Positions 1 through 61,792 of a DNA stretch of 64,000 bases are shown here, piece after piece. Source of the DNA: Candidatus Desulfaltia sp. (GTDB lineage Bacteria > Desulfobacterota > Desulfobacteria > Desulfobacterales > ETH-SRB1); NCBI GenBank assembly GCA_030656555.1, contig JAUSPN010000101.1:2941-66940 (forward strand). The letters run 5' to 3'. The notes under the pieces were generated by a model. That model worked only from the letters and a program-made list of their open reading frames with translations, was not told the DNA's origin and ran no database searches. The position numbers and the translations under genes are program-made. Each line of letters starts with the position of its first letter. Within the stretch, counting starts at the first letter, position 1.

Positions 1-540
1 GATTTTTGTATCAAAGTTAAAGCTGTTAAATTCTTCCACATGCTGTTTAAACTGGTCTAAAAGATCGTCTCTATGGGCTAAAAATAAAATATCGTTTTCT
101 GGTATCTCTTTTTCCTGTATAAGCCTTCCTAACAGCCTGATAAGTTTAACAATTATAAGAGTTTTCCCCGAACCGGTCGCCATCCAGAAACTCATTCGGT
201 TAAGAAAGCAGGCAAAAGAAATTTTATCATCTGAAACAGAATAGTCTTTATCGTATTCCAAAAGATATTTAACTGTTTTGCCATCTTTCTTCTTTTTCAG
301 ATCATAATTAAAATCTTCCTTAAAACCATTGTATTGATAATATTCAAAAAGTTTATTTTTACTACCCTCTTTTTCTTTATAAAAAAGCCAAAGTCCTTTG
401 AGTACGTTTTGCAACCCTTGTTTTTGAAAATCAAAAAGAGTTTTGTCTTGAGAAAATCTTGCCAAATCAAAACTTTGCCATTTTGGAGGCAAGCTATCAA
501 AAGAAATATCGTCAATTATTGACTGCAAATAAAGTTTCAT
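1..540 (-). CDS. DEAD/DEAH-type helicase, N-terminal part (res-like partner of the adjacent methyltransferase); runs off the left edge
   Basis: Absent from the ORF track because it is open at the window edge. My translation from ATG 540-538: MKLYLQSIIDD...TLFDFQKQGLQNV...FWMATGSGKTLIIVKL...FLAHRDDLLDQF, with Walker A ATGSGKT. Its ATG overlaps the upstream stop (ATGA at 537-540). Confidence 0.6.
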   Translation of the reverse strand, partial: MKLYLQSIIDDISFDSLPPKWQSFDLARFSQDKTLFDFQKQGLQNVLKGLWLFYKEKEGSKNKLFEYYQYNGFKEDFNYDLKKKKDGKTVKYLLEYDKDYSVSDDKISFACFLNRMSFWMATGSGKTLIIVKLIRLLGRLIQEKEIPENDILFLAHRDDLLDQFKQHVEEFNSFNFDTKI

Positions 541-1388
541 TTTTTATCGCTTAACGATTTTTTACCTGCCTGACGGAGAGGCAGTTCTTGCGGATTTTTT
601 AGATAGTTTTCTTTGGAAACAATTGATTTACCCAGCCGTTTTTCTAATTTTTTTCTTGCCCCGCCGGCAATAGCTCCGCCGGATACAGCATCTGATTTCA
701 ATTTCGGCACGCCCCTGGAATTTTCCACACGGTGAATTTCCGTGGTGGCGCGCTCGCCCAGCATACTAAAAATTAATTCCAAATCGTCCATATGATCGCG
801 TAAATTTTCCCGCTTCAAACTCTTAATCTTCTTATACTGGCCTGGCGTTACGCCAAAAGTTGCCTTGGATATTTCCGCGGTTAAGATTTCGTAGTCTTTT
901 TGTTCTCGCGCGCCTCGTTTTTGCCATTCATCGGTCAATTCTTCACGAATAGCAATGCCCCGCATTCGTTTTTCTATCCAATCGTCACTATAGCCCTTAA
1001 GTTTATAAAGCATTCTTGTCCGTTTTGTTGCCAATTCAGGATTTTCAATTTCCTGCACTCTTTCGTAACCGACTTTTGCCAGCCAACGCTTAAATGGCTC
1101 TGCTTTGGGCGAAGGGATTGACTGTATAATGCGGAAAATACCTTCTGTATTAGCGCAATTTAGATCTTGTTTGCCTCCTGTGGTTTCTATGGAAAGGGGG
1201 GTGACAATTTGTCCCCACCCTTTGCCAATCTCTTTGTCGCGAATACGCATTTTGCGGATATAATCTTTAACATTAGGTGTATCAGTAAGCGCCTCCACAA
1301 CATCATTTACTACAAACCACCATTCGTTATTGTGAATGGTTTTTCTAATTTCCCTGCCTTTAAATAATGCGATTTTTGTTGTTTCCAT
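537..1388 (-). CDS. Bro-N domain protein with DinD-like C-terminal half
   Basis: N-terminus FKGREIRKTIHNNEWWFVVNDVVEAL...ANTEGIFRIIQSIPSPKAEPFKRWLAKVG matches the Bro-N pattern as I remember it. This architecture is often annotated DNA-damage-inducible protein D. There is a 9-nt gap to the upstream methyltransferase and a 4-nt overlap with the helicase. Confidence 0.6.
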   Translation of the reverse strand: METTKIALFKGREIRKTIHNNEWWFVVNDVVEALTDTPNVKDYIRKMRIRDKEIGKGWGQIVTPLSIETTGGKQDLNCANTEGIFRIIQSIPSPKAEPFKRWLAKVGYERVQEIENPELATKRTRMLYKLKGYSDDWIEKRMRGIAIREELTDEWQKRGAREQKDYEILTAEISKATFGVTPGQYKKIKSLKRENLRDHMDDLELIFSMLGERATTEIHRVENSRGVPKLKSDAVSGGAIAGGARKKLEKRLGKSIVSKENYLKNPQELPLRQAGKKSLSDKK

Positions 1389-1397
1389 GTTTTTAAT

Positions 1398-3923
1398 TTA
1401 CTCCCACCAGATTAGAGGCTTAATAAGCTTATAATCCAAATCCCTGGTATTTATTTTTGTCCCATCGCTAAATTCCACTTCATCTTTTCGGACAGCTTTT
1501 ATCCATTTACCGGTCAGATTTGATAATGTTTCGGCAATATCAATACTCGGGTAGAGCTTAGTCAAATCTACATTTACCTTATTATTCTCATAATCAATTT
1601 CCAATACCTTGAGCATTTTCTCGTCTTTCATAAAGACATATTCCTGATATGGTGCTGAGTTTGGTCTTGTGAACAAATCGCCGTCCTCGTATTTGCAATT
1701 CGCCAGTGACTCCTCGTATTGCTCAAGCTCGTAATATTTGAAAAACCCGCCACCTTGCCAATTTATATCTTTCGATAAGTGAGGCCTTCTTTCTATATCC
1801 GGAAGTGACATATTTCTATCACCAAACAAAACCCACTTCATGCGCCCCTTAACTCCTAATTTTTTACCATCCTCTGTCTCATACATTTCATTAAAATGAT
1901 TTCCCATTTCGACCCCAATCCATCTCCTGTTTAATTTATGGGCAACCGCCGTGGTAGTGCCAATTCCCAAAAAGTAATCCAAGACAATGTCTCTTTGTTC
2001 AGAAGAAGATTGTATTATACGCCGCAGTAGGTTTTCTGGTTTTTGAGATGATGTAAAACTAAAGCTCTCGCTAACTCTCATTTCCGACTGCGTGAACGAA
2101 AAAATATCATTCCAAATATCACCAACTGGAAATATTTTTTCATTTATAGTAACTGAATTTAATCCAAATTTATTGTTGGTCCACTTTTCGATTTTAAATT
2201 CAAAGTCGGTTATTTTTTTTGGGGATGTTATTCTCGGAAAAGCAATTAAATCGAGCCAACCTAACCCAAGTTCAGTAGTGTTTCTGTTTGGCTTCCATAG
2301 TTTTCTAAATAAATATTTATCATTATGGCAATAAAAGATCGTTTGATGTTTAAGTTGAAAATTGTCGCCAAAACTTTTATAACTGAATAAATCTGCTTCG
2401 ACATCTTTTGTCGCGTTCGTATCAAAAATAATCTCGTCAATCTGAGAAAACTTACTCTTAATAAGCTCCTTACCAAAAATATTGGCGTTATCGTCTAAAT
2501 GGAGCCAAAAACTACCATCTTTCCTTAAAAAATTTATTCCAGAATTTATTCTGTCTCTCATTAAACTCAACCAACTTGAATCTTGGAATTTATCTACATA
2601 AGGAAAATCCTTTCCCGTATTAAATGGCGGATCAATATAAATCGTCTGCACTTTTTCTTTAAACTTCGGCAGAATCGTATTTAAAGCCTGATAGTTTTCG
2701 CTTTTAATCAGCCAGCCGTCTAACTGATTGTCCAGATCGTCAAACAGCGCCAAAATTTCAAGTTCTAAATCCTTAAAATATTTGGTGTCAATCGGCAGAT
2801 GCTCATATTTTTTAGCTAAATGCGTTCCTGTTAAATCAGTTTCAAGAACATCATTTACTTTAAAACTTGCATCTACAATCCCGAGTTCCAGCCATTCTTT
2901 GATTTGCTCTTTTATGCCTCGGGCTTTAAGTGTTTTTTCAACTAGCGAGATTGCTTCGTCGTCGCGGAGTTTATCCGCCGAATTGGCGGGCTCCTCGCAA
3001 TGACAGGCGGAAATAATTCTGTCCAGCGTAATCACATAATTGCTGTTTCTCACAAATTTCGGTTTGTTCCATATCTTTACCAGCTCATCTTCAAACTGAC
3101 TGATAAAATCAATAACCTTAAAAGCAATATTTTTTAAAATTTGCAGTTGATCCACTCTTTCCGCCGACCATTCTTTGGCCCCATCCCAAAAATATTGGTA
3201 GCTCCAAAGCTTAAACTGCTCTTTCAAAAATGCTCTGGCGTTTTTATTAATAAAAAAATCTACTTCAGACTGCTTGCCGAAAACACGAAAAGCTTTTTCT
3301 AGTTCCTCCTCTTTTATCGCAACGCCTTTCTTCTTTAGTGCTGTTAATATCTCATCTGTTTTTGTCTTTCGTCCTCTTTCAGAATATGCCACATCAAAAG
3401 CAATTGTCCCATCTTCTCTGACCTTTTTTAATTCAAAAACAAGAGACCTCTTTTCGTTTGCCTTTTTGTTTTCAATGCTTTTTGCGTCAAAATAAAATTT
3501 CAATCCCCCTGTTTCCCCCTTTGATAAAGGGGGAGTAAGGGGGATTTCTACCGGCATACTGCGGAAAATCCTGTCGGTTTTGACATAGTAGAGCATCTGC
3601 GTTTTCCAAAAAAGAATGACATCTTTTTCATCTGTATAAACCTTTTCGTAAATATTGTTATGAAAAGGAGTGGAGTTAAAATAAATAGATCCGCTTTCAG
3701 TAAAATAGCGGCTGAAAAAGGAATATAGCTTGTCAAAAAGCTCTTCCCTGAATTTGGGATATTTTTCCAGCGCGTTATCAATATCATCTTTAAGCAGTTT
3801 TTCTATTTGCGAATAATAACTGGACTTTATCCGCATTAAATTGATAAAACCGCCTTCGCCATCAATTTTTGCGCCAATAAAAACATCTTGAAGCACTTTA
3901 TAAAATTTTTGTTCTTTAGTCAT
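1398..3923 (-). CDS. N6/N4 DNA methyltransferase, Type III Mod-like, with a long N-terminal region
   Basis: Motif IV in IYIDPPFNTGKDF; AdoMet motif I in VLDYFLGIGTTTAVAHKLNRRWIGVEMG; 841 aa. Confidence 0.8.
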   Translation of the reverse strand: MTKEQKFYKVLQDVFIGAKIDGEGGFINLMRIKSSYYSQIEKLLKDDIDNALEKYPKFREELFDKLYSFFSRYFTESGSIYFNSTPFHNNIYEKVYTDEKDVILFWKTQMLYYVKTDRIFRSMPVEIPLTPPLSKGETGGLKFYFDAKSIENKKANEKRSLVFELKKVREDGTIAFDVAYSERGRKTKTDEILTALKKKGVAIKEEELEKAFRVFGKQSEVDFFINKNARAFLKEQFKLWSYQYFWDGAKEWSAERVDQLQILKNIAFKVIDFISQFEDELVKIWNKPKFVRNSNYVITLDRIISACHCEEPANSADKLRDDEAISLVEKTLKARGIKEQIKEWLELGIVDASFKVNDVLETDLTGTHLAKKYEHLPIDTKYFKDLELEILALFDDLDNQLDGWLIKSENYQALNTILPKFKEKVQTIYIDPPFNTGKDFPYVDKFQDSSWLSLMRDRINSGINFLRKDGSFWLHLDDNANIFGKELIKSKFSQIDEIIFDTNATKDVEADLFSYKSFGDNFQLKHQTIFYCHNDKYLFRKLWKPNRNTTELGLGWLDLIAFPRITSPKKITDFEFKIEKWTNNKFGLNSVTINEKIFPVGDIWNDIFSFTQSEMRVSESFSFTSSQKPENLLRRIIQSSSEQRDIVLDYFLGIGTTTAVAHKLNRRWIGVEMGNHFNEMYETEDGKKLGVKGRMKWVLFGDRNMSLPDIERRPHLSKDINWQGGGFFKYYELEQYEESLANCKYEDGDLFTRPNSAPYQEYVFMKDEKMLKVLEIDYENNKVNVDLTKLYPSIDIAETLSNLTGKWIKAVRKDEVEFSDGTKINTRDLDYKLIKPLIWWE
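3502..3546. repeat. Small palindromic element inserted in frame inside the methyltransferase CDS
   Basis: aatccccctgtttccccctttgataaagggggagtaagggggatt is a nested perfect palindrome (tccccctttgataaaggggga inside atccccct/agggggat). It encodes EIPLTPPLSKGETGGLK. Confidence 0.6.
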
Positions 3924-4048
3924 ATATAAGTCCTGAATTTTATTGTTTAATCGATTTGTATTTTACTAAATGTTGTTTGAAATAAAAAAACTAATTTGAA
4001 GGGGAAAATAGCTGACGAGCCCTAACAGATGGCAAGCCATGTTGTAAA

Positions 4049-4142
4049 TGGCGGAGAGAGAGGGATTCGAACCCTCGGTGCCGCTTTTGGCAGCACACAC
4101 GATTTCCAGTCGTGCTCCTTCGGCCAGCTCGGACATCTCTCC
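4049..4142 (-). tRNA. tRNA-Ser (anticodon GGA)
   Basis: Reverse complement reads GGAGAGATGTCCGAGCTGGCCGAAGGAGCACGACTGGAAATCGTG...GAGGGTTCGAATCCCTCTCTCTCCGCCA. Acceptor pairs GGAGAGA/TCTCTCC, anticodon loop is CUGGAAA, with a long variable arm and encoded CCA. Confidence 0.9.
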
Positions 4143-4204
4143 GCAAGATAAGCAACAGCCAGGTATGGTTTTAATTTCAGCTGTTATCCTATGCTTACAA
4201 AAAA

Positions 4205-4239
4205 TTGATGATTGTCGATTGTCGATTGATGATTGAAGG
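4205..4239. repeat. Heptamer tandem arm (GATTGTC/GATTGAT variants), inverted partner of the 4321-4395 array
   Basis: gatgattgtcgattgtcgattgatgattgaagg is roughly complementary to the AATCTTC array. It is followed by the GAAGGTATTCT junction also seen at 7250 and 28300. Confidence 0.7.
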
Positions 4240-4320
4240 TATTCTATTCATTTTATAACAAAAAGACGGAGCGACCTGCCTGTGCGTTACTCGCAGACAG
4301 GAGCGATTCCATAAATCATC

Positions 4321-4395
4321 AATCTTCAATCTTCAATCTTCAATCTTCAATCTTCAATCTTCAATCTTCAATCTTCAATCTTCAATCTTCAATCT
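4321..4395. repeat. Perfect tandem repeat (AATCTTC) x10 plus a partial unit
   Basis: Read directly. The array ends 1 nt from the CCA end of tRNA-Ser(CGA). It produces the spurious SSIFNLQ repeats in track ORF 4233-4631. Confidence 0.95.
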
Positions 4396-4396
4396 G

Positions 4397-4489
4397 TGGC
4401 GGAGAGGGTGGGGTTCGAACCCACGATCCCGTTATTCACAGGATACCGCTTTTCGAGAGCGGGGCCTTCAGCCGCTCGGCAACCTCTCC
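4397..4489 (-). tRNA. tRNA-Ser (anticodon CGA)
   Basis: Reverse complement reads GGAGAGGTTGCCGAGCGGCTGAAGGCCCCGCTCTCGAAAAGCGG...GTGGGTTCGAACCCCACCCTCTCCGCCA. Anticodon loop is CUCGAAA, with a long variable arm and encoded CCA. Confidence 0.9.
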
Positions 4490-44741: not shown

Positions 44742-45297
44742 ATGAGTAAAAATGGAGTTGTTCCGGTTGATCAGATTGAAAGCATTATCTTTCTGATACG
44801 CGCTCAAAAGGTCATGTTAAGCCCTCACCTGGCGGAACATTGAACCGCGCGTTCTGGTTCAGGCAGTAAAGCGAAATATCGATAGGTTTCCAGTAGACTT
44901 TATGTTCCAGTTATCAGATGATGAGTTTGCTAACTTGAAATCACAAATTGTGACTTCAAGTTGGGGCGGCCCTCGCAGAGCAAAACCATACGCTTTTACA
45001 GAACAAGGGGTTGCAATGCTTTCCAGTGTTCTGAAAAGCAAGCGTGCGGTTCAGGTTAATATTGAGATCATGCGTGCCTTCGTGCAACTCCGCGAAATGC
45101 TGGCTTCTAACGTGGAGCTTGCCGGTAAGCTGAAACAAATGGAAAAGAAATATGATAAACAGTTTAAGATCGTCTTTGAAGCTATTCGCCAGCTCATGAC
45201 GCCGCTTGCAAAACCACGCAAGAAGATTGGCTTTATAGTAAAGGAAAAGCAAGCTGCCTATGGCAAAATGACAAAGGGAAGTAGAAAAAAGAAATGA
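44742..45297 (+). pseudogene. ORF6N-domain (KilA-N-like DNA-binding) gene disrupted by a frameshift
   Basis: Frame A gives [33 protein letters not shown], stopping at 44841. Frame B, open from 44821, gives ..[66 protein letters not shown]. Together they rebuild a typical ORF6N protein if a small out-of-frame deletion lies near 44835-44841. Confidence 0.65.
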
Positions 45298-45518
45298 TAC
45301 CGAAAAAGACAACATTCAATAAAAATAATATCATTAAGGGTCAAAGGCAGACCTTACCCCTTTTTTATTCACCAGATAAAAGCGGCATCAAAGTGGCCAA
45401 ATACATGACCGAACTCCCGAAACGCGAACTACTGGAGCAGAAGTTTCACAAAGCGGTTGAATTAGCGCAAAAACGGCCGGAGGCAAAACCTGCATGGTGC
45501 AATACAGAACACAAATGA
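45294..45518 (+). CDS. Small hypothetical protein, start overlapping the ORF6N stop (ATGA)
   Basis: 74-aa track ORF with no domain I can name. Confidence 0.3.
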
Positions 45519-45633
45519 TGTCAGCGGGATAAAGTGAATCGGAGGATGGTATACATATTATTGCCTTTTTTCTTCGGGAAATAAGTGTACTGTACCTGGA
45601 ATTACAAAAACTAAAATATACACCCAAGGAAAA

Positions 45634-46794
45634 ATGAAAATGAAAAACATTGAGTTAAAACTGAAAGAATTTGAGTTTTCTGAAAAGAGTGAAAAACATC
45701 TTGATTGGAGCATTGAAAAATTCTCGTTAGGAGAATTTAATATAATATTAAGTGATAATGCTCAAGGCAAAACTAGAATGTTTAACATATTGAGATTTCT
45801 AAAGGATATTCACACAGTTGGACGGAAATTCAATAATCCTAATTACAAAGCTAAGGCTACTCTTTGGTTTGAATCAGGTGAAGATAAGATATTTTATGAT
45901 TTAGCTTTTGCCGGAGAGCCAAAAGGCGATGGGCTTGTTTTCAATGAAATTGTAAAAAGAAATGAAATTGTCCTGTTTGACAGATCAAAAAAGATGCTAA
46001 TTGATGAAACTAACAATGAACAGGTTGGTAAATTTTTTCTGCCAAGCAATGCGCCGGTGGCCTTAGCAGTGAAAGATAAAGAATATATAACTATAAATTT
46101 GATACAAGATTTCTTTTCTCGAATGCTCTTCTTAGAAGCAAACCGTTTTGCACCCGATAAATTATCAATTGATATGGCTGCCATGACTTTAGACACGAAG
46201 GGGCAAAATATCGGCTGTGTTTTGAATAATTGGAAGAAAAAGAAACCGTTATTATACAATGAAGTTGTTGAAGTTTTTAGAGATTGCTTCCCTTTTATAG
46301 AAGATATTTCTATCGAAAAAAAAGCATTTGTACCTGGAATACCCGATTCTCCGATGATGTACATAAAAGAAAAAGATATAGATAGAAAAATTATTCAAAC
46401 TGCATGGAGTGACGGTATGTTAAGGGCTTTGGGTCATTTTATCGTAGTTAGCACTCAATTCCAAAGCGAAACTGATGCAGTAATTAGACCAAGTTTCATT
46501 GGGGTTGATGAAGTTGAAAACGGGCTTGATTTTAATGTATTAGCTAAAGTTATAGAATACTATGAATCATATAGTAGTTTAATTCAAATTGTAATAGCGA
46601 CTCATTCACCTTTGGTTTGCAATATGGTTGGAGCAGATAACTGGTTGATAATGAAAAGGAAAGGTGTAAAAGTTAAGGTCTTTTCTCCTTCCAATGTTGA
46701 GAATTTAGAAACTGAGAGGCGGAAGATTAAAAAAGACAACTGGGAATTTTATCGAAGGCATATTGCTAAATCGAAACTATATAGGATTAAGTAA
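45634..46794 (+). CDS. ABC/SMC-like AAA ATPase (AAA_15/21-type) with an atypical Walker A
   Basis: ILSDNAQGKT (Walker A with Ser in place of the first Gly), WSDGMLRAL (signature-like), SFIGVDEVENGLD (Walker B/D-loop), VIATHSP (H-loop). Confidence 0.7.
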   Translation: MKMKNIELKLKEFEFSEKSEKHLDWSIEKFSLGEFNIILSDNAQGKTRMFNILRFLKDIHTVGRKFNNPNYKAKATLWFESGEDKIFYDLAFAGEPKGDGLVFNEIVKRNEIVLFDRSKKMLIDETNNEQVGKFFLPSNAPVALAVKDKEYITINLIQDFFSRMLFLEANRFAPDKLSIDMAAMTLDTKGQNIGCVLNNWKKKKPLLYNEVVEVFRDCFPFIEDISIEKKAFVPGIPDSPMMYIKEKDIDRKIIQTAWSDGMLRALGHFIVVSTQFQSETDAVIRPSFIGVDEVENGLDFNVLAKVIEYYESYSSLIQIVIATHSPLVCNMVGADNWLIMKRKGVKVKVFSPSNVENLETERRKIKKDNWEFYRRHIAKSKLYRIK

Positions 46795-47456
46795 TGAAGG
46801 CAGTCATATACTATGAAGGCCCTTCCGAGAGAAAAATGATTAATCATCTTCTATATAAATCCTCTCAAATCATTATTCGTACGGAAGATTATAAAGAGTT
46901 TTTAGACGCACCAATAGACCAGAATTGCATCCTGTTTTATGATTGTAAAGGAGATGGAAATGTCTTTCCGAGTATTGCTAAAACTCCTTATTACTATGAA
47001 AATGATGAGCAAATAATAATTATAAGGGATTTAGAAACTACAGATTGTTTCACTCTGCTAAAAGACGAGTTGAACGATTATTGTCCAGAATTACCAGAGG
47101 CCCGTACAAAGCCTATTTTTGCCAAATATACATTAGAACACGTATATCTTGCCGATTTGGATATCTTTAAACAAGTATTTCGTTTGACGTATAGGAAAAA
47201 AACAGGGAAAGAGATTCCTGACAACGAAAGATTTGAGAAATTAATCGGCAATTTAGACCCTATAAAACCTGACTTAAAGGGGATATTTAGGGCTTATGGG
47301 ATAGCATTTCATAAGTCAGCAATAGCACATGAATTTTTTGCAAGGTTCGACTTCCACAATTCGAACCATCCTTATTTCATCAGGCTCGTTAAGTCATTAC
47401 ATAAGCTATTGCATGAACCGGAAAATGGGGGCGGCCTTGACATGGAACAAAGTTAA
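46794..47456 (+). CDS. TOPRIM-like partner protein (DUF4276/RloB/DUF4435-like)
   Basis: 1-nt overlap (TAATG) with the ATPase. N-terminus is MKAVIYYEGPSERKMINHLL, with an acidic IIIIRDLETTD block and a C-terminal AIAHEFFARF...YFIRLVKSL. The family assignment is from memory of these families. Confidence 0.45.
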   Translation: MKAVIYYEGPSERKMINHLLYKSSQIIIRTEDYKEFLDAPIDQNCILFYDCKGDGNVFPSIAKTPYYYENDEQIIIIRDLETTDCFTLLKDELNDYCPELPEARTKPIFAKYTLEHVYLADLDIFKQVFRLTYRKKTGKEIPDNERFEKLIGNLDPIKPDLKGIFRAYGIAFHKSAIAHEFFARFDFHNSNHPYFIRLVKSLHKLLHEPENGGGLDMEQS

Positions 47457-47583
47457 GTACTTGGCCTACCAATCAATCCAGCGGACGTGGTAAAGGGTGC
47501 TGCTGATCTTTTTGTTGGTCCATGCAACTTGCAACAGTGTTCTTCATTAGAGTCTATGACCACTTAGAATCCAGGAGTATTTC

Positions 47584-47793
47584 ATGGCAAAGACCGATCT
47601 TACAGACGAAGAAAAGAAAACAATAATTGAGACGCTGAATAACAATGTTGAACCGCCTTCGGAGCTAATGACAAAACTCTTTCCGGGACTGGCGGAAAAA
47701 TTCGATGTGGCGAAACTGGACAGGGCTAAGGTCGTCACCCTTGAATATGTGGGGAAAAGGAATCGAAGGGGAAATCAGAGGACATATTATTGA
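47584..47793 (+). pseudogene. Orphan fragment resembling the N-terminus of a Mod methyltransferase
   Basis: TDEEKKTIIETLNNNVEPPSELMTKLFP...LEYVGKR parallels the N-terminus of the next gene (TESEKQKIIEMIKASKPIPVIYKNKLF...LVYKGKTRKEDI) at protein level only. It stops soon after. Confidence 0.35.
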
Positions 47794-47885
47794 AACAATC
47801 AAGCAATTGATGCAGCCGTCGAAAAAACCGAGAAAGAGAATAAGTTAGAAAATTAGAGTAACAGTATGATACCAAGGGCAATATT

Positions 47886-50174
47886 TTGAAACTTACCGAA
47901 AGTGAAAAGCAGAAAATCATTGAAATGATCAAGGCAAGCAAGCCGATCCCTGTAATTTACAAAAACAAGCTTTTTGATTCAGATGATTCGGAATTCATCG
48001 AGGCTACCAAAGACTACAGGCTGGTTTATAAGGGAAAAACACGGAAAGAGGATATTATTGCAGGCACGCCTGTCGCACCTTTTCAGAAAGTCCGTTCCTT
48101 TAACAGCGACAATTCCTTTGATGAAGACTGGCGGAATATGCTCATTTTCGGCGACAATCTTCTTGCCCTTAAAACCATCTATGATGATCAGCGAAACGAA
48201 AACAGATATAAGACAAAAAACCGCATAAAGCTCATCTACATCGATCCCCCCTTTGCCACCAAACAGGATTTCATGAAAGACCGGGAAAAGGCGTACCGTG
48301 ACAAGATTATCGGGGCGCAGTTTATTGAATTTTTGCGCAAACGCTTGATTCTCATGCGGGAGATTCTGGCCGACAACGGCTCTATTTATGTGCACCTGGA
48401 CTGGAAGAAAGGGCATTATATCAAGGCCATAATGGATGAGGTATTTGGAGAGCATAATTTTCAAAACGAAGTTATTTGGCATTATAGGCTGTGGACAGCT
48501 GGAGATAAAAAATTTCAAAATATGCATGACACAGTTTTCTTTTATACAAAATCAGAAAATTCTTTTTTTAATCTTCCCTATGATCCTTATGGTGATTGGA
48601 TAAAAAAGGATTATCAATATTTTGATGAAGAAAGTGGTAAACGATGGAGATGGCATACTGTAAAGGGAAAACGATATAAAGTATTTCTTGAAGATGAAAA
48701 TAGGGGTGTAAAGTCTAATGATGTTTGGGAAATTCCGTATATAGTATCTACTGCGATAGAAAGAAAAATAACTGGAAATTATCCAACCCAAAAACCGGAA
48801 CAATTATTAGAGAGAATAATATCTGCCTCATCTAACGAAAATGACATCATCCTCGACGCCTTCGCCGGTTCCGGCACCACCCTTGCCGTTGCAGAAAAAC
48901 TTGGCCGCCGCTGGATCGGAATGGACTGCGGGAAACTTGCTATTTACACCATCCAGAAAAGAATGCTCAATCTCACCACCCGAATCGGTTCCGCGAAAAA
49001 TGATGACCGCCGGGATTATGAACGGGTGGATGATTTCGAAGATCATTCCAAAAATTCCCGCGGTCTGTTTTTTGTCTATGAGAAAGCCCGCAGGGGTGAT
49101 CTGGCAATTACCGACACATTCCTCAAAAACTTTGCCGGTTTTATTTCAGAAAATCTATCCGGCAATAAAGAACAATCCTTTTCGCTGGCTTGTCCTAAAG
49201 ACAAGTTCAAAGTCCACAAGCTGAAAGTAACGGAAAACGAAGACGGAAAAGCGGGGGAAAAGATTGTAACGGTGGGCAAAGTCAGATTTCGAATTTCCTT
49301 TATCCTGTCAAAAGAAAAGACCGAAAAGGAAAAACCACTGAAGGCAAAAGAATTCACGCTCTACAACGCCGGCATCTACGATAATAAACAGATCCTTAAT
49401 ATGGATTGGGAGTCTTATAAGCCTTTTGTCACCCAGCTTTTTGGCCTTCGCCCCGAATCTCACAAGATACACGGCTTCATGGCAGACGGCTATATCGGCA
49501 TTCATTCAGCTTATATATGGGACTATCCGAATCAGAAAAATTTAATCCTTGATACAGGATATGTCAAAACACTGCACACGGTTTTAGGTGGCAGGGCCGG
49601 CAATAAATTCTATGTAATTGCCCCTGTTATCTCGATGGGATTTATGGAAGATGAAATTCCAATCGACGGAACCACCTACGTTTTTCTGAAAGTTCCTCTA
49701 TCCATATTGATGGCGCTCATTGAAAAGGGCGAGCCGGGAAGTCTGAAACAGCCGGTTAGTGAAAATGATGTCAACGAAGTAATCGACGCGGTTGGATTTG
49801 ACTTTATCTCCCAGCCCGTGGTTGCTGCAAGGTACTGCCGGAAAGCGCCGGAAAACCGGAATCTGTTTAACCAGGATCATAAGGATTTTGTCATTGAAAT
49901 CACTCAATTCAAGTCCAATACTCTTGTCTACGATCCGGAGGATTTTGAAAATTTTGAAACCCTTTCAATGGTATTGATCGATACCAATTACAACGGCGGG
50001 TATTTCAATCTGGATAATGCCTTCTGGGCAGATAAAATACTTGATGATGCTAAAACCAAAGCCGTTATAAGAATCCCGCAAAATGAATTTGCCGGCAAAA
50101 AGATGCTGGTAATATTTATGGATAAGTATGGAAATGAACTCAAAGTTTTGAAATCAAAAGGGGATTTCAAATGA
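47886..50174 (+). CDS. mod: Type III restriction-modification methyltransferase (Mod)
   Basis: IKLIYIDPPFATKQDF (motif IV) and ILDAFAGSGTTLAVAEKLGRRWIGMD (motif I). TTG start is uncertain. 4-nt overlap with res. Confidence 0.85.
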   Translation: MKLTESEKQKIIEMIKASKPIPVIYKNKLFDSDDSEFIEATKDYRLVYKGKTRKEDIIAGTPVAPFQKVRSFNSDNSFDEDWRNMLIFGDNLLALKTIYDDQRNENRYKTKNRIKLIYIDPPFATKQDFMKDREKAYRDKIIGAQFIEFLRKRLILMREILADNGSIYVHLDWKKGHYIKAIMDEVFGEHNFQNEVIWHYRLWTAGDKKFQNMHDTVFFYTKSENSFFNLPYDPYGDWIKKDYQYFDEESGKRWRWHTVKGKRYKVFLEDENRGVKSNDVWEIPYIVSTAIERKITGNYPTQKPEQLLERIISASSNENDIILDAFAGSGTTLAVAEKLGRRWIGMDCGKLAIYTIQKRMLNLTTRIGSAKNDDRRDYERVDDFEDHSKNSRGLFFVYEKARRGDLAITDTFLKNFAGFISENLSGNKEQSFSLACPKDKFKVHKLKVTENEDGKAGEKIVTVGKVRFRISFILSKEKTEKEKPLKAKEFTLYNAGIYDNKQILNMDWESYKPFVTQLFGLRPESHKIHGFMADGYIGIHSAYIWDYPNQKNLILDTGYVKTLHTVLGGRAGNKFYVIAPVISMGFMEDEIPIDGTTYVFLKVPLSILMALIEKGEPGSLKQPVSENDVNEVIDAVGFDFISQPVVAARYCRKAPENRNLFNQDHKDFVIEITQFKSNTLVYDPEDFENFETLSMVLIDTNYNGGYFNLDNAFWADKILDDAKTKAVIRIPQNEFAGKKMLVIFMDKYGNELKVLKSKGDFK

Positions 50175-52774
50175 GCCTTAAATATAAAAATGATGATTTC
50201 TTGCTCCGAACAGACGACTATTCTGAAAAAGTGCTATCTGTAGTCAATAAGTATGATGCCTTTTTAGACGCACTGACTACCGCTGATTTTGGGCATATTC
50301 GTGAAGCGACAAGAATGGCCATTCAATTTTTTGTCTCCGATAAATATAAAAATACAGAGCAGGTTGCAGTCCATACTTATAACCAATCCCCAAAACTTAA
50401 GATCCGCTATAATAGATTGAATGATTATTTGGGGCATATTCAGATCAGGGATAAGAAATCGTTCAGCATCGACTTGGCCACAGGCACTGGGAAAAGCTGG
50501 GTTATATACGCTGTGTCTCAGATTATGCTGGCGGAGGGTCTGGTGGACAAGGTGCTGGTGTTATGTCCGTCTTTGACTATCGAAGAAGAGCTAAAAATTA
50601 AATTTGAAGTATTCAGCGGAAATAACGTATTGACACAGATTCTGACTGAACTGGATGCGGCTTATCCCTCTCCTGCCATCAAGAGCGCCAATGTCCCAAT
50701 CTTGAACGGTGATATTTGTATCGAGAACATCCACGCCGCCTATCAGCGAACAGGCTCTTCCATTCCTGACAGCTTTAAAGGCAAAGGGCAGCGAACCCTG
50801 GTCATCAGTGATGAAGCCCATCACATATACAGTAAGGCAGACGCTAATGTGAAGAAGTGGTACGATTTCTTGATAAACCCGGATTACGATTTTCATTATC
50901 TGCTTGGACTAACAGGCACACCTTATATCGGTGATGAATATTTTCACGACGTGATTTACCGTTACAGCCTGAAACAGGCAATGGAAGACGGGATCATCAA
51001 AAAAATTGATTATAAGGTCGAAGAGGAGTCGGATAAAGAGAAGGGGTTTGATGAAACATATCAGAATCACGTAGCCATACAGGAAATGTATTCCGGCAAT
51101 TTAAAGCCCATCACTATTATCATAACCGACAGGATCGTTACCTGTATCCAGGTGTGGAACAATCTGGTTAAATATATCTCTGAAAAAGAAAACCTGTCCT
51201 ATGACCAGGCGGCAAAAAAAGTCATCTGGGTGACTTCCGGCCTGCCATCTTCGGCAAATGAAAGAACGGTTGTTGATGGTATTTTAAGCAACGGTGAAAA
51301 AGTGCGGAAAGAAAACCTGACATTGCTGAAATCTGTGGATGAAAAGGAGAATCCCGTAGAATGGATTGTCTCTGTAAGTATGCTTACCGAAGGATGGGAT
51401 GTTAAAAATGTATTTCAGATTGTGCCTCATGAACAACGGGCTTTTAATTCCAAATTGCTTATTTCACAGGTTCTGGGCAGGGGGTTAAGAATACCGAAAG
51501 GGTTGGAACACCCGATCTTTGTAAAAATCAATAATCATGAAAAATGGACGCCAAAGATTGTTAATCTATATAACGAAGTCCTGGAAATAGAAAATAAGAT
51601 CTCATGGTTTTATGATGAATCCAAAAAACGCTATGCCTTCCCGCTTTACAATTTAGAATATGCATCCCTGCAGGACACCATAGAGATCAAGAAAGAGCCT
51701 GCAAAAGAACCGGGAAAGGTGGATTTTTCGCCACAGAGCAGAAAATGGGAAGAAACCAGCCGCTATTCGGAAACAGGTTCTTTTCGTTTCACCGTTGAGA
51801 ATAAGGACATATTGACCATCGAGCAGGCCGCGCGCCAGATCAAACTTTTTTTAAAGGAAAAAGACGCCTCTATTTCAAAGCAGTGGTCGATTAAGAAAAT
51901 CAAGGATTTTATTGTTAAGAACCTTGAGAAAGATGATTACGATTCGTCATTTCTTACAAATGAAAATTTATCAAAAGCAAAACAGGCATTTGGGCCGATG
52001 TTTAGGGAATTAGACAAGAAAGCGCCCAGGATGAAAATGCGGCCTGATTCGCTCTATCCGTTAATCTGGGAGGAGATGTCGTTACAGTCTTTCAATGAGA
52101 GTGCAATAAAGGAGAACAGTTACGTTTATTATACAAAAGATTCTGTCAATTCTCTTTCAGCCGAGCAGAAAATTTTATTTGGCGACTTTTTAAAAGATAA
52201 AGAAAACTATGATCAGGTTAGAGAAAAGGTTGTCAGGTATGGTGGCAACGAAGACGAAATCAAATTTTTACAGGAAAATCTCTTTGAAAGAACGGATGAT
52301 GAGTTCAAAACGCCGTTAAATATGCTTTTTGTCTCCTATGAGCCGGAACATCGATTTGCCAACTCATTATTTAATAATATTAATTTGTTTGACTCGATTT
52401 TCAAATCACCGGATAAGGGCTTTTATTGGTTCCCCTATTCTTATAAACCGGACGAGAAAGGAAGCACTCACGTTAAGAGGGAAAATTTTAATCCTGATTT
52501 TTTCATCAAACTGAAAGATAAAAATGAAATACTGGTGGTAGAGATAAAGGCGGACAGCGACACCAATCAAAAAAACAAAGCAAAATATCGGGACGGAAAG
52601 GCGCATTTTGATTCGTTGAACAAGAAATTGAAGGAAAATGGCATTGATTGGAAATACCATTTCTACTTTTTATCGCCGGAAGACAGAACAGAGTTTTTTC
52701 AGGCTGTTCGTGATGGTCGGTATAAAAACTGGAAATCCGGATTGATGCAGGAATTAAGTAGTAACGGAAAGTAA
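50171..52774 (+). CDS. res: Type III restriction enzyme Res subunit (SF2 helicase plus C-terminal PD-(D/E)xK)
   Basis: DLATGTGKSWVI (motif I), VISDEAHHIY (DEAH), GLTGTPY, MLTEGWDVKNV, QVLGRGLR, and C-terminal NPDFFIK...ILVVEIKADSD. Confidence 0.85.
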   Translation: MSLKYKNDDFLLRTDDYSEKVLSVVNKYDAFLDALTTADFGHIREATRMAIQFFVSDKYKNTEQVAVHTYNQSPKLKIRYNRLNDYLGHIQIRDKKSFSIDLATGTGKSWVIYAVSQIMLAEGLVDKVLVLCPSLTIEEELKIKFEVFSGNNVLTQILTELDAAYPSPAIKSANVPILNGDICIENIHAAYQRTGSSIPDSFKGKGQRTLVISDEAHHIYSKADANVKKWYDFLINPDYDFHYLLGLTGTPYIGDEYFHDVIYRYSLKQAMEDGIIKKIDYKVEEESDKEKGFDETYQNHVAIQEMYSGNLKPITIIITDRIVTCIQVWNNLVKYISEKENLSYDQAAKKVIWVTSGLPSSANERTVVDGILSNGEKVRKENLTLLKSVDEKENPVEWIVSVSMLTEGWDVKNVFQIVPHEQRAFNSKLLISQVLGRGLRIPKGLEHPIFVKINNHEKWTPKIVNLYNEVLEIENKISWFYDESKKRYAFPLYNLEYASLQDTIEIKKEPAKEPGKVDFSPQSRKWEETSRYSETGSFRFTVENKDILTIEQAARQIKLFLKEKDASISKQWSIKKIKDFIVKNLEKDDYDSSFLTNENLSKAKQAFGPMFRELDKKAPRMKMRPDSLYPLIWEEMSLQSFNESAIKENSYVYYTKDSVNSLSAEQKILFGDFLKDKENYDQVREKVVRYGGNEDEIKFLQENLFERTDDEFKTPLNMLFVSYEPEHRFANSLFNNINLFDSIFKSPDKGFYWFPYSYKPDEKGSTHVKRENFNPDFFIKLKDKNEILVVEIKADSDTNQKNKAKYRDGKAHFDSLNKKLKENGIDWKYHFYFLSPEDRTEFFQAVRDGRYKNWKSGLMQELSSNGK

Positions 52775-58926: not shown

Positions 58927-59067
58927 GATTATTTCTCCGTTTTCTTGATTTAAAATTCAGTTAGCAATTTAGGTCTTTCAAAAAAGACTTCTTTGACAGG
59001 ATTAAAACATCAAAACTTATCCTGTTATCCTGTCTGGTTTTTTTCAAATAATTAAAGTATTACAAAT

Positions 59068-59523
59068 TCAGCTTATTTCTTCAATCTTTATTCCTTGCCT
59101 GATTAAAAGAGCTGCCGCAACTCCGGTTATAGCGTTTGATTCCGTGTCGCCCGATATCTCAGGACGCGACCGCTCCCCCATACCCACCCCTCAAGAAGGG
59201 CTTTTATCTTTTAAAAAACAAAACTTGATATTATGCGCTTTTATCCGATTCAAAGCAGCATAGGCTCCGTCAATAAAAGCCTTTGTATTGTCTATTCCAT
59301 GAATGTTTACGACTCTTGCATTTCCATCCAGCACATTAAAACCATCTCCGTCAACAAGTCTGGACGGATCTCTCGGAGTTGTGAGCCCTCCTAACTGTTC
59401 AGGACAGATCGGCAGAATCCTTTCCGTTGCCAGCCGCTTAAAGACAACAGCACTTTTTTTGCTTTTTCCATCATATCTGCAGTTATAACCAAGCAGACAC
59501 GCACTTGCAGCCACCATTAACAT
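59068..59523 (-). CDS. DUF523/TudS-like protein with in-frame TGA (59193-59191) at the conserved SPSCG cysteine; candidate selenoprotein, otherwise a nonsense pseudogene
   Basis: The track ORF ends ...FLKDKSPS*. My in-frame continuation reads [TGA]GVGMGERSRPEISGDTESNAITGVAAALLIRQGIKIEEIS*, stopping at 59070-59068. Total length of 151 codons is typical for the family. SACLLG..CRYDG and ICPEQLGGL are present upstream. Confidence 0.55.
59146..59171 (-). other. Stem-loop about 19 nt downstream of the in-frame UGA (candidate SECIS)
   Basis: RNA GGUCGCGUCCUGAGAUAUCGGGCGAC. GUCGC pairs with GCGAC and CC with GG around a 9-nt loop, with a 2-nt bulge. Confidence 0.35.
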
Positions 59524-59530
59524 ATATCCT

Positions 59531-60184
59531 TTATTGATTATTTTCTTTTATCAAGACTTCACATTGAACGATATATTGAAGCGCCTTATAATGCACCCCG
59601 ACATCAGGATAATCGGATATAACCGACTTGAATCTGGCCAGTGCCCCCTTGTAGTGTTTGCTCTTATAATATTGCAACCCCACCTCGAACATAGCTTCAG
59701 CAAGGCTTTTATCGCATTTATTGATATATGCTTTCCCCATATGAGCGTATTTATCACGCGGGAACTGTTTTATCAGGCGTATAAACGTGGTTTTTGCCTT
59801 TTCCGCCGAACTCTGGTCCCTGTCCGGCGTGCTCACCTGTTCAAAATAACACAGCCCGATCTGGTATATTACATAAGGTATGGCCTCGTTATTGGGATGA
59901 AGATTTTCAAACTCCTCATAAGCAAAAATAGCATCTTCATATTCCTCTAAACAGTAATAAGCGTCGGCAACTTTTAGTTCCGCAAGAATCGCAAATTTGC
60001 TGAAAGGATACCAGTCTTTTAACTTTTCAAACGATTCAATCGCTTTTTTATAATTTCCGCTTTTGAAATCATCCATTCCGTTGCTTGCAAGTTCCTGAGC
60101 CGATTTTTCTTCCTTTGTTTCAAACCACGCGCAACCGGAAAAAACAAAAAAAGAAATTAGACAAAATATTAATATACGTTTCAT
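59531..60184 (-). CDS. bamD: Outer membrane assembly lipoprotein BamD (TPR)
   Basis: Lipobox FVFSGC, then TPR-like repeats: GNYKKAIESFEKLKDWYPFSKFAILAELKVADAYY... Confidence 0.8.
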   Translation of the reverse strand: MKRILIFCLISFFVFSGCAWFETKEEKSAQELASNGMDDFKSGNYKKAIESFEKLKDWYPFSKFAILAELKVADAYYCLEEYEDAIFAYEEFENLHPNNEAIPYVIYQIGLCYFEQVSTPDRDQSSAEKAKTTFIRLIKQFPRDKYAHMGKAYINKCDKSLAEAMFEVGLQYYKSKHYKGALARFKSVISDYPDVGVHYKALQYIVQCEVLIKENNQ

Positions 60185-60233
60185 TATAATATGTTAGCCT
60201 TATAAAATAAACTATTTGTATTTGTAATACATT

Positions 60234-60319
60234 TACCACAAAGATCACAGAGCACGCAAAGTAAATTAATTTGTTTTTTATCCTTCTATTTCTCTGTAGT
60301 CTCTGTGTGCTCCGTGGCA
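60234..60319. repeat. Hairpin element with CACAGAG-word arms
   Basis: taccacaaagatcacagagcacgcaaag - loop - ctctgtagtctctgtgtgctccgtggcaag. Confidence 0.7.
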
Positions 60320-60337
60320 AGAATGGTTGGTTTTCTT

Positions 60338-61270
60338 CTAATTTATATTTTCTATATAATGCTCGGCTGAAAATGCCGCAATTGCAGCGTCACCCACTGC
60401 TGTTACAATCTGTCGCAGCGGAGTATTGCGCACATCTCCTGCAACAAATACCCCGGGCACCGAAGTCTCCATGTTTGAATCGGCTATAACAAATCCGGAT
60501 TCATCCAACCTGACACAGCCACCTAAAAATCCTGTGTTTGGATGTATGCCTGTCCAGACAAAGCATCCATCAACCTTCAACTCTTTTGTGTCGTTTGTTT
60601 TAACATTCTTTACCGTAATATTTTCGACATTGGTTAAGCCGCCGTTAATGCTTGTTACTATTGAATCCCAGATAATTTCTATCCTGTTGTTGGCAAAAGC
60701 CCGTTCCTGCAAAATCTTTGTTGCCCTGAGTTCGTTCCTTCGATGAATAAGATATACCTTGTCGGCAAATTTAGTAAGAAATAAGCTTTCCTGCACAGCG
60801 GTATTTCCTCCTCCAATTGCAGCGACTACAAGACCTTTATAGAACGGCCCGTCACAAGTAGCGCAAAACGATACCCCTTTACCATAAAATCTATCTTCAC
60901 CGGGAACACCCAGTTTTCTTGGGGAAGCTCCTGTAGCTATGATAATTGTATAAGCGGTAATGGTTCTATCGGAAAGCCTGACTTCCTTGACTTTTTCGGA
61001 GCAATCAATTGAAATTACTTCGTTGTTTTCAATATTAAGATCAAACCGCTTTGTTTGCTGTGTTATATTTTGGACCAGATCGGCTCCGCTAACACCTTTG
61101 GGAAAACCCGGATAATTTTCGATCCAGTCGGTTGTAATAACCTGTCCGCCTGGAATGGCCTTCTCAACCAGGATAACATTTAACCTGGCTCGTGCCGCAT
61201 AAAGACCGGCGGTCAGCCCCGCTGGACCACCGCCTATTATTACAAGGTCGAAATCAGCCTTTTTCATCAC
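60338..61270 (-). CDS. trxB: Thioredoxin reductase
   Basis: VIIGGGPAGLTAGLYAAR...FCATCDG...GGGNTAVQE. Confidence 0.93.
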   Translation of the reverse strand: MMKKADFDLVIIGGGPAGLTAGLYAARARLNVILVEKAIPGGQVITTDWIENYPGFPKGVSGADLVQNITQQTKRFDLNIENNEVISIDCSEKVKEVRLSDRTITAYTIIIATGASPRKLGVPGEDRFYGKGVSFCATCDGPFYKGLVVAAIGGGNTAVQESLFLTKFADKVYLIHRRNELRATKILQERAFANNRIEIIWDSIVTSINGGLTNVENITVKNVKTNDTKELKVDGCFVWTGIHPNTGFLGGCVRLDESGFVIADSNMETSVPGVFVAGDVRNTPLRQIVTAVGDAAIAAFSAEHYIENIN

Positions 61271-61300
61271 AAAATCTTCTACAAAACTCTTTAAAAAAAT

Positions 61301-61465
61301 ATTGAAGCTCCCAGCTGCTTACGGCGGGGAGCTTTAATATTTCGAGAATTAAAATTTAAGCCTGACACAGACACGTTAGTGACACACAGTGAAGCATTAG
61401 TGCCAACCATCAGCGCTAACCTTTAGCGCTAAATCAAGCAAAAGGGGGTATTTTTTCAAAGGTTC
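61301..61465. repeat. Partial copy of the composite repeat (end of left half plus right-half module)
   Basis: attgaagctcccagctgcttacggcggggagctttaatatttcgagaattaaaatttaagcctgacac ... caagcaaaagggggtattttttcaaaggttc. Confidence 0.65.
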
Positions 61466-61792
61466 TTACAGTATTTTATTTATAACTTCCTCAAGTTTTT
61501 TTTTCGCGACTATACCTATTATCTGATCAACAACATTACCCTGTTTGAAAAACATTAATGTTGGTATTGATCTGATACCGTATTTTCCCGGTGTGGCTGG
61601 ATTGTCATCAACATTGAATTTTACAAATTTGACCTGCTTGCCGAAAGAACCTGATATCTCATCTATTACCGGACCGATCGCCCTGCATGGCCCGCACCAC
61701 GGAGCCCAGAAATCTACCAGCACAGGTTTATCCGCTGCCAATACCTCGGCATCGAAACTGTCATCGTCAACTTCCACAATGTTTGCTGCCAT
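61466..61792 (-). CDS. trxA: Thioredoxin
   Basis: VLVDFWAPWCGPCRAIGP. Confidence 0.93.
   Translation of the reverse strand: MAANIVEVDDDSFDAEVLAADKPVLVDFWAPWCGPCRAIGPVIDEISGSFGKQVKFVKFNVDDNPATPGKYGIRSIPTLMFFKQGNVVDQIIGIVAKKKLEEVINKIL

Follow-up and report, generated by a model that had tools for sequence, protein, structure and literature searches.

The DUF523 family (Pfam PF04463, 2-thiouracil desulfurase) includes the desulfidase TudS, whose [4Fe-4S] cluster is held only by three cysteine (Cys) residues, Cys10, Cys43 and Cys104, with the fourth iron binding the sulfur of the substrate; catalysis is assisted by Glu45, Ser101 and Ser103, and Arg17 binds the phosphate of 4-thiouridine monophosphate (4-thio-UMP) (PMC10611767). 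A selenocysteine (Sec) form of this family, carrying the motif SPSUG, was predicted by deep-Sep in Desulfosarcina sp. BuS5, a bacterium with 18 selenoproteins; the sequence is given in Table S2 of that study, which noted homologues with Cys and, among other Sec-utilising bacteria, none with TGA (mSystems 2025, PMC12013277). A 2026 review lists the family as PF04463 with the motif SxSUG and the accession WP_419761712.1, and states that binding of metals or Fe-S clusters is predicted, on the basis of Cys homologues, for about 20% of selenoprotein families (PMC13188914). TudS-type cluster ligation for DUF523 is absent from both main texts, as searched: the term "iron-sulfur" has 0 occurrences in PMC12013277, and PMC13188914 holds no passage on Fe-S clusters in DUF523. 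Here we describe a DUF523/TudS-like gene on the minus strand of a 64,000-nucleotide (nt) stretch of DNA from Candidatus Desulfaltia sp. (contig JAUSPN010000101.1, positions 2,941 to 66,940), hereafter the window. In this gene an in-frame UGA at 59193..59191 very probably encodes Sec in a full-length TudS/DUF523 protein, at the position of the third cluster ligand of TudS.

In the list of open reading frames (ORFs), the gene appears as a 110-amino-acid minus-strand ORF that starts with ATG 59523 and runs to ...FLKDKSPS, where it meets the TGA at 59193..59191. This N-terminal coding part (residues 1-110, 59194..59523) is assigned to DUF523/TudS by its translation, by Pfam PF04463 and by alignment to TudS 6z92. 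The first-pass annotation of this stretch had noted a TGA directly after ...KDKSPS, in the column that the family fills with Cys, and a frame open for 40 further codons; both observations are borne out. The UGA is codon 111, in the motif SPSUG, and aligns to Cys104 of TudS, and past it the frame stays open for 40 codons (GVGMGERSRPEISGDTESNAITGVAAALLIRQGIKIEEIS; residues 112-151, 59071..59190) up to the true stop of the full-length gene, a TGA at 59070..59068, with homologues stopping at the same place. Translation of this C-terminal extension depends on decoding of the UGA; within it lie the conserved helix and strand of TGVAAALLIRQGI. With decoding, the gene would in all likelihood extend over 59523..59068 and yield a product of about 149-151 amino acids. 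Translation probably starts at the second ATG, 59517: AAGGA stands 9 nt ahead of it, a better spacing than that of ATG 59523, and database homologues begin with MVAAS.... The codons of the two cluster-ligand-type residues Cys9 and Cys40 lie at 59499..59497 and 59406..59404, respectively. Contigs of four independent metagenome runs agree on the TGA at 59191-59193, which rules out an assembly error; the window is covered completely (100%) by a groundwater metagenome run. An exact-sequence look-up of the 110-amino-acid ORF gave no record.

Reading through the UGA brings the protein into line with its family. The truncated ORF scores 95.3 bits against PF04463 and covers positions 2-103 of the 141-position profile, whereas the read-through protein, with the TGA read as Cys, scores 114.3 bits and covers positions 2-136 (cut-off 34.7 bits), in agreement with the first-pass view that read-through restores the family-typical length and C-terminal pattern. 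In a phmmer search of PDB sequences only TudS is matched (6z92, E = 7e-16), with the UGA opposite Cys104 of its SPSCG motif. Specifically, C9, C40, E42, S108, S110 and R16 align to C10, C43, E45, S101, S103 and R17 of TudS, and across 65 aligned homologues each is either fully conserved or conserved to at least 90%. The equivalents of two ligands are thus both present, as Cys9 and Cys40, and the third ligand position is the UGA codon, which would complete the set only when read as Sec or Cys. The annotation had stated that three Cys residues, the one in SPSCG among them, bind the TudS cluster; the residues named in PMC10611767 are exactly these, and it is the third to which the TGA aligns. At the level of the fold, we used the AlphaFold model of P0003, a long-loop Cys homologue 72% identical to the window protein (predicted local distance difference test score, pLDDT, 88.6). 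Foldseek with this model against the PDB retrieves TudS entries only (E about 1e-14, template modelling score 0.75). The helix at 133-140 and the strand at 144-148 are modelled at high confidence, and the sole disordered part, residues 114-128 with pLDDT below 50, is the equivalent of an insertion that follows the UGA in the window protein. No NCBIfam model matches the read-through protein.

To place the codon in an evolutionary context, we compared 160 homologous loci fetched by scans of species-representative genomes and metagenome contigs. At the Sec column, 17 of them carry TGA and 143 carry TGC or TGT. Additionally, about 46 of the 50 database clusters retrieved (90% identity, ~108 amino acids; P0006-P0093) end exactly at ...SPS, and when 8 highly divergent truncated clusters were looked up, all 8 proved to have TGA, a conserved read-through frame and a downstream hairpin, bringing the TGA-bearing loci to 25. 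Cys/Sec pairs at this column, which the annotation had proposed to look for among DUF523 homologues, are therefore present. In all TGA loci the downstream frame is open and conserved and ends in ...TGV(A/T)AALLIR.GI..EE, and the stop at the Sec column is always TGA, never TAA or TAG, always with the hairpin after it. Conservation of the 40 downstream codons had been the other comparison proposed: they are conserved among TGA homologues, and the last 19 evolve under purifying selection. Among diverged Sec forms, these 19 codons show a non-synonymous divergence (pN) of 0.11-0.25 at a synonymous divergence (pS) of 0.5-0.9, giving a pN/pS of about 0.2-0.3. Such low pN at high pS indicates that the sequence 3' of the TGA is translated and under selection.

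The Sec and Cys forms of the clade also share their genomic setting. The gene order trx, trxB, bamD (YfiO), DUF523, rpmB is common to both, while bamD adjoins DUF523 in 0 of 121 more distant homologues; given this shared bamD-linked order, the Sec and Cys forms are orthologues that have switched in place.

Downstream of the UGA, a conserved hairpin resembling a selenocysteine insertion sequence (SECIS) occupies 59161..59178 on the minus strand, corresponding to nt 16-33 counted from the U of the UGA, and was delineated by conservation and covariation across the TGA loci. It begins 12 nt after the UGA and consists of GGGGAGC (59178..59172), the loop GGUC (59171..59168, nt 23-26) and GCGUCCU (59167..59161), which together form 6 pairs and one A.G mismatch with a folding energy of -5.9 kcal/mol. 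A hairpin with a 4-nt loop is found in 25 of 25 TGA loci, the loop lying at nt 23-26 or, in one subgroup whose stem sequence is unrelated (L020, L093, L404, L405 and L407), at nt 21-24. Across 20 distinct sequences, standard pairs fill 85% of the cells as against 62% in column shuffles, a level reached by 0 of 500 shuffles; double-sided changes number 26 against 9.5 expected, 5 of the 7 pairs show compensatory change, and pairing in slid registers is 36-51%. At the second loop position, 19 of the 20 have G, the base typical (usually as GU) of the apical loop of a bacterial SECIS. An earlier covariation test on 9 sequences had been uninformative, with RNAalifold giving a weak alternative pairing, and was resolved with the more diverse set. 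Under a looser hairpin criterion, 15 of 17 TGA loci qualify versus 22 of 143 Cys loci. Within the four runs, natural variants inside the hairpin affect only the first loop base, 59171, and the mismatch, 59165. The position of the loop is shared with other Sec genes. In the SelD gene of the clade, the SECIS is the hairpin CUCCAGG-GGA-CCUGGAG with its apical loop at nt 24-26, and in Escherichia coli fdhF the sequence GGUC stands at nt 22-25 (a sequence confirmed at >=99% identity in 5,413 genomes), in a structure that we take to be the fdhF SECIS hairpin. Taken together, these features suggest that the hairpin at nt 16-33 most likely directs SelB-dependent Sec insertion.

SelD, whose Sec-containing form is itself a known selenoprotein, served as the sole proxy for the Sec machinery in sister metagenome-assembled genomes (MAGs). 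Searches were seeded with the published BuS5 SelD and then with that of the closest MAG. Four MAGs that carry a TGA-DUF523 gene also carry SelD with an in-frame TGA at its active site, namely RPGP01 (Eth-SRB1; SelD locus L323, DUF523 locus L010), JABMRH01 (L324, L005), CAYYMU01 (L328, L008) and JAGGWL01 (L162, L021). Sister MAGs with the Cys form carry Sec-SelD as well, among them JAUWQO01, the closest MAG. The TGA-bearing MAGs JASEIZ01, JAYENE01, JAUVHU01, CAZQOH01 and JABXJX01 have no SelD among the matches listed, which may reflect incompleteness. In this and neighbouring Desulfobacterota clades, the SelD active site ...G(S/A)G-U-ASKL... is encoded with TGA in 27 of 27 genes checked (loci L320-L329, L339, L346, L161-L174, L241-L245 and L257). 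Because SelD genes carry an in-frame TGA at the active site, the clade decodes UGA as Sec.

The hairpin is linked to an insertion in the protein. In the window gene, most of the hairpin is held by a 14-codon insertion, ERSRPEISGDTESN (residues 117-130, 59134..59175, minus strand). Correspondingly, the loop between U and the GV(T/A)AALL helix comprises 22 residues in Sec forms, 12 residues in the L020 group and 8 residues in most Cys forms of the clade. In relatives 89-92% identical to the window gene, two different 14-codon deletions, leaving CGVGTGGMTGV and CNAKSNAMTGV, remove the hairpin. The long loop is kept by a few Cys forms (L013, L016 and L019). One of these, L019 (JAUVKB010000052.1, codon 3325-3327, TGT), has a perfect 7-bp hairpin, UGUGCGC-GGUU-GUGUGCA, with its loop at nt 23-26, which looks like a fossil SECIS left after a recent Sec-to-Cys change. 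In diverged Sec forms, pS is 0.46-0.54 over the 21 loop codons (59134-59190) versus 0.7-0.84 over the C-terminal 19 codons (59071-59127), while pN/pS in the loop-coding region is about 0.7-0.9 and its non-synonymous divergence exceeds that of the C-terminal 19 codons. The lowered pS at such a pN/pS suggests that the loop is constrained at the RNA level and little at the protein level. Sec forms are paraphyletic in a neighbour-joining tree, with Cys forms nested among them. From this topology it looks as though Sec was ancestral in the clade and reverted to Cys at least five times, usually with subsequent deletion of the SECIS insertion. The locus would then be a clean example of a SECIS borne as a disposable, disordered protein insertion and deleted once Sec reverts to Cys.

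On the basis of these comparisons, a working mechanism can be proposed. SelB with Sec-tRNA(Sec) would bind the hairpin 12 nt downstream of the UGA, with its GGUC loop at nt 23-26, as in E. coli fdhF, the hairpin being carried by the 14-codon insertion that would form a disordered surface loop of the protein. The selenolate of Sec111 would replace the third Cys ligand and, together with Cys9 and Cys40, hold a [4Fe-4S] cluster whose fourth iron would bind the substrate sulfur, and 4-thio-UMP or thiouracil would be desulfurated via a [4Fe-5S] intermediate. TudS chemistry is to be expected because Glu42, Ser108, Ser110 and Arg16 are conserved. Provided that Sec is incorporated, Sec111 probably ligates iron as Cys104 does, and an equivalent role of Sec and Cys is further argued by the free switching of orthologues within the same locus. 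That Sec111 is a true selenolate ligand of a non-redox desulfidase cluster and, beyond replacing Cys, alters the function of the enzyme is a long shot. If true, Sec111 might adapt the unique iron to anoxic habitats rich in sulfide, or might allow seleno-nucleotide substrates or a Se-S intermediate that the thioredoxin system encoded nearby would resolve, and the enzyme would be a natural case of catalytic Fe-S chemistry tuned by selenium.

Several other explanations have to be weighed against Sec insertion. The TGA could be a true stop, the gene being a pseudogene or encoding a truncated protein of 108-110 amino acids, and the downstream frame a decaying remnant. This is how gene callers and public databases treat such genes, annotating 108-amino-acid proteins, and the truncated ORF alone passes the Pfam threshold (95 bits). 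We nevertheless regard a true stop as extremely unlikely: the product would be without one of the three cluster ligands and would end before the final helix and strand, the frame past the TGA stays open to an equal length in 25 independent loci and is under purifying selection (pN/pS about 0.2-0.3) even where pS is near saturation, and TGA is never exchanged for TAA or TAG at this column and is in every case followed by the hairpin. Pseudogene, sequencing error and split gene were each considered and rejected, given the downstream selection, the agreement of the four runs and the third ligand that a split form would still be without. Low-level insertion of Cys or Trp at UGA is known in bacteria, and the UGA might accordingly be read through by a near-cognate tRNA for Cys or Trp; or the C-terminal 39 amino acids might be made separately from GTG 59187 and assemble with the N-terminal piece; at this position a GTG-initiated 39-amino-acid ORF (59187..59068) does exist. 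Neither is at all likely, however, given that the UGA coincides exactly with a column of invariant Cys, that SelD shows UGA to be decoded as Sec in this clade, and that the codon is followed by a covarying hairpin of SECIS geometry; the deletion of this hairpin in Cys revertants is hard to explain without a decoding role, and a split protein would again be left with its third ligand missing.

Other alternatives accept Sec and differ on how it is inserted or on what it does. The first-pass annotation had pointed to a stem-loop about 19 nt downstream of the UGA, and it does exist: it is the minimum free energy (MFE) helix at nt 22-51 from the U of the UGA (59143..59172, minus strand; apical loop GAUA), whose 11 pairs all form in the window, with 9-10 of them retained in relatives more than 88% identical. 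Its apical loop starts with G ~33 nt after the UGA, presumably within the range used in bacterial SECIS searches. The functional SECIS might thus be this stem-loop or an extended structure containing it. What fails is its conservation in more distant TGA homologues (L008, L009, L010, L087, L015, L021 and L094), where only 4-6 of the 11 pairs can form, with about 3.9 expected by chance. Moreover, it overlaps the 3' arm of the hairpin at nt 16-33, so the two folds are mutually exclusive, and it is the latter that covaries and is found in all Sec forms; the loops of the clade's SelD and of E. coli fdhF likewise lie at nt 22-26. A SECIS at nt 22-51 is therefore quite unlikely. About as doubtful is the idea that Sec111 is not simply a passive ligand and serves as a sulfur or selenium acceptor, as a nucleophile, or on a different substrate such as seleno-nucleotides. 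In its favour, the Sec residues characterised so far are mostly catalytic (PMC13188914), and the conserved synteny with trx and trxB would supply a system that could reduce a selenenyl-sulfide. Yet the other two ligands and all TudS catalytic-type residues are conserved, and the synteny, which includes bamD and rpmB as well, may reflect nothing more than a housekeeping gene neighbourhood. The preferred reading, in which the hairpin at nt 16-33 directs Sec into a protein that binds a TudS-type cluster, is itself faced with a number of contrary points. Sec in DUF523-family proteins, this one included, is a prediction, and Fe-Se ligation would follow from homology only. The hairpin is short, at 6 pairs, one mismatch and -5.9 kcal/mol, and local folding, the stem-loop of the first-pass annotation included, is no more stable than that of shuffled sequences (MFE z = +0.94). 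No SECIS or other credible Rfam family was detected in a scan of the window at gathering thresholds or in a permissive scan of 59040-59260. In the covariation test, the hairpin itself served to choose the register of the five sequences with loops at nt 21-24, a procedure that favours structure. Within the 64-kb window, a Pfam search of about 49 ORFs gave no SelA, SelB or SelD domain, and a six-frame scan for TGA-joined ORFs gave no second selenoprotein gene, the other candidates being shadow ORFs; nor was a tRNA-Sec found in the window or in any fetched locus. Finally, the scenario of ancestral Sec rests on a weak neighbour-joining tree of about 105 residues.

The surroundings of the gene in the window are largely housekeeping genes, together with two restriction-modification-like islands. 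Upstream (59531-61792) lie genes for thioredoxin, thioredoxin reductase and a BamD/YfiO lipoprotein, and the rpmB gene on the other side encodes ribosomal protein L28. The distance from the bamD stop to the DUF523 start is 8 nt (to ATG 59523) or 14 nt (to ATG 59517), and at this spacing the two genes are probably co-transcribed. In the intergenic segment 59016-59049, between the DUF523 stop and rpmB, many short contigs from three other metagenome runs break, and the word depth jumps up to about fivefold (e.g. 75 vs 14); one contig lacks 8 nt at 59017. An inverted repeat, GACAGGAT / ATCCTGTC (58995-59002 and 59027-59034), is followed by a T-run on the plus strand. The segment is single-copy within the window and may represent a terminator or else an element that is repeated or varies between strains. 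Farther away, the region 44902-52774 holds an ORF6N-domain protein (44902-45297), an AAA_21 (AbiEii-like) ATPase (45634-46794) followed by a 220-amino-acid ORF, and an N6/N4 DNA methylase (47886-50174) that overlaps a ResIII/SWI2-SNF2 helicase (50171-52774) by 4 nt. This region is likely a defence island, its methylase and helicase looking like a type III restriction-modification mod/res pair. At the other end of the window, a Bro-N domain protein (537-1388) and an 841-amino-acid DNA methylase (1398-3923) adjoin two tRNA-Ser genes (4049-4142 and 4397-4489), and 537-4489 may be the remnant of a mobile element integrated at tRNA-Ser.

These observations bear on how such genes are annotated and on how they can be used. 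Dozens of them stand in public databases as a 108-amino-acid "DUF523 domain-containing protein", several so named by NCBI or JGI; stored truncated at the Sec codon, and with no NCBIfam model covering the family, DUF523 Sec genes are systematically mis-annotated. The Sec family is spread across a clade of uncultured Desulfobacterales, in which some MAGs bear the label Eth-SRB1, and this spread offers comparative data for its acceptance. Additionally, a small, crystallisable enzyme with natural Sec/Cys orthologues of up to about 90% identity could be used to probe the effect of a selenolate on a catalytic [4Fe-4S] cluster.

The window protein can finally be set beside the systems known to date. 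With TudS (6z92, 6z93, 6z96 and 6zw9) it shares the Pfam family, the fold, two Cys ligands and the equivalents of the Glu, Ser, Ser and Arg residues, but a UGA-encoded residue takes the place of Cys104 and is followed by a 14-residue disordered insertion; the identity is about 38%, and desulfidase activity is predicted here by homology. The DUF523 selenoprotein of BuS5 is closer, with 59% identity over 148 residues in a gapless alignment that places U on U, and it has the same family, SPSUG motif and long loop after U; BuS5-type homologues (L021 and L094) also have the bamD, trxB and trx neighbours and the hairpin. It comes from another organism and was reported from a single genome, as compared with the 25 TGA loci and ~46 truncated clusters found here. 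As in the E. coli fdhF SECIS, the hairpin lies within the coding sequence 3' of the UGA, with a GGUC loop at nt 23-26 here and nt 22-25 there, and an irregularity sits 2-3 pairs below the loop in both. The two differ in stem sequence and in the kind of irregularity, a mismatch here and a bulged U there, and binding of SelB is a prediction for the hairpin described here. Sec at a metal- or cluster-ligand position of Cys homologues is likewise seen, for example, in the Fe-S UxxC protein, the 2Fe-2S-binding selenoproteins and the FDH3 beta motif CMHUADAPC (PMC13188914; PMC12013277, Table S2). For HdrA, a literature search yielded no usable record of Sec as a documented Fe-S cluster ligand. The clusters of the selenoproteins named above serve electron transfer, whereas the cluster considered here would be the catalytic, substrate-binding cluster of a non-redox enzyme; in all of these selenoproteins, the present one included, the ligand assignments derive from Cys homologues. 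Thus, neither the DUF523 selenoprotein family nor the general notion that Sec can occupy cluster-ligand positions is new. What this locus and its relatives add is the breadth of the Sec forms, their conserved locus, a covarying SECIS-like hairpin with fdhF-like geometry, the coupling of Sec/Cys change to an insertion and its deletion, and an explicit mapping, by sequence alignment, of U onto the predicted third ligand of a catalytic TudS cluster.

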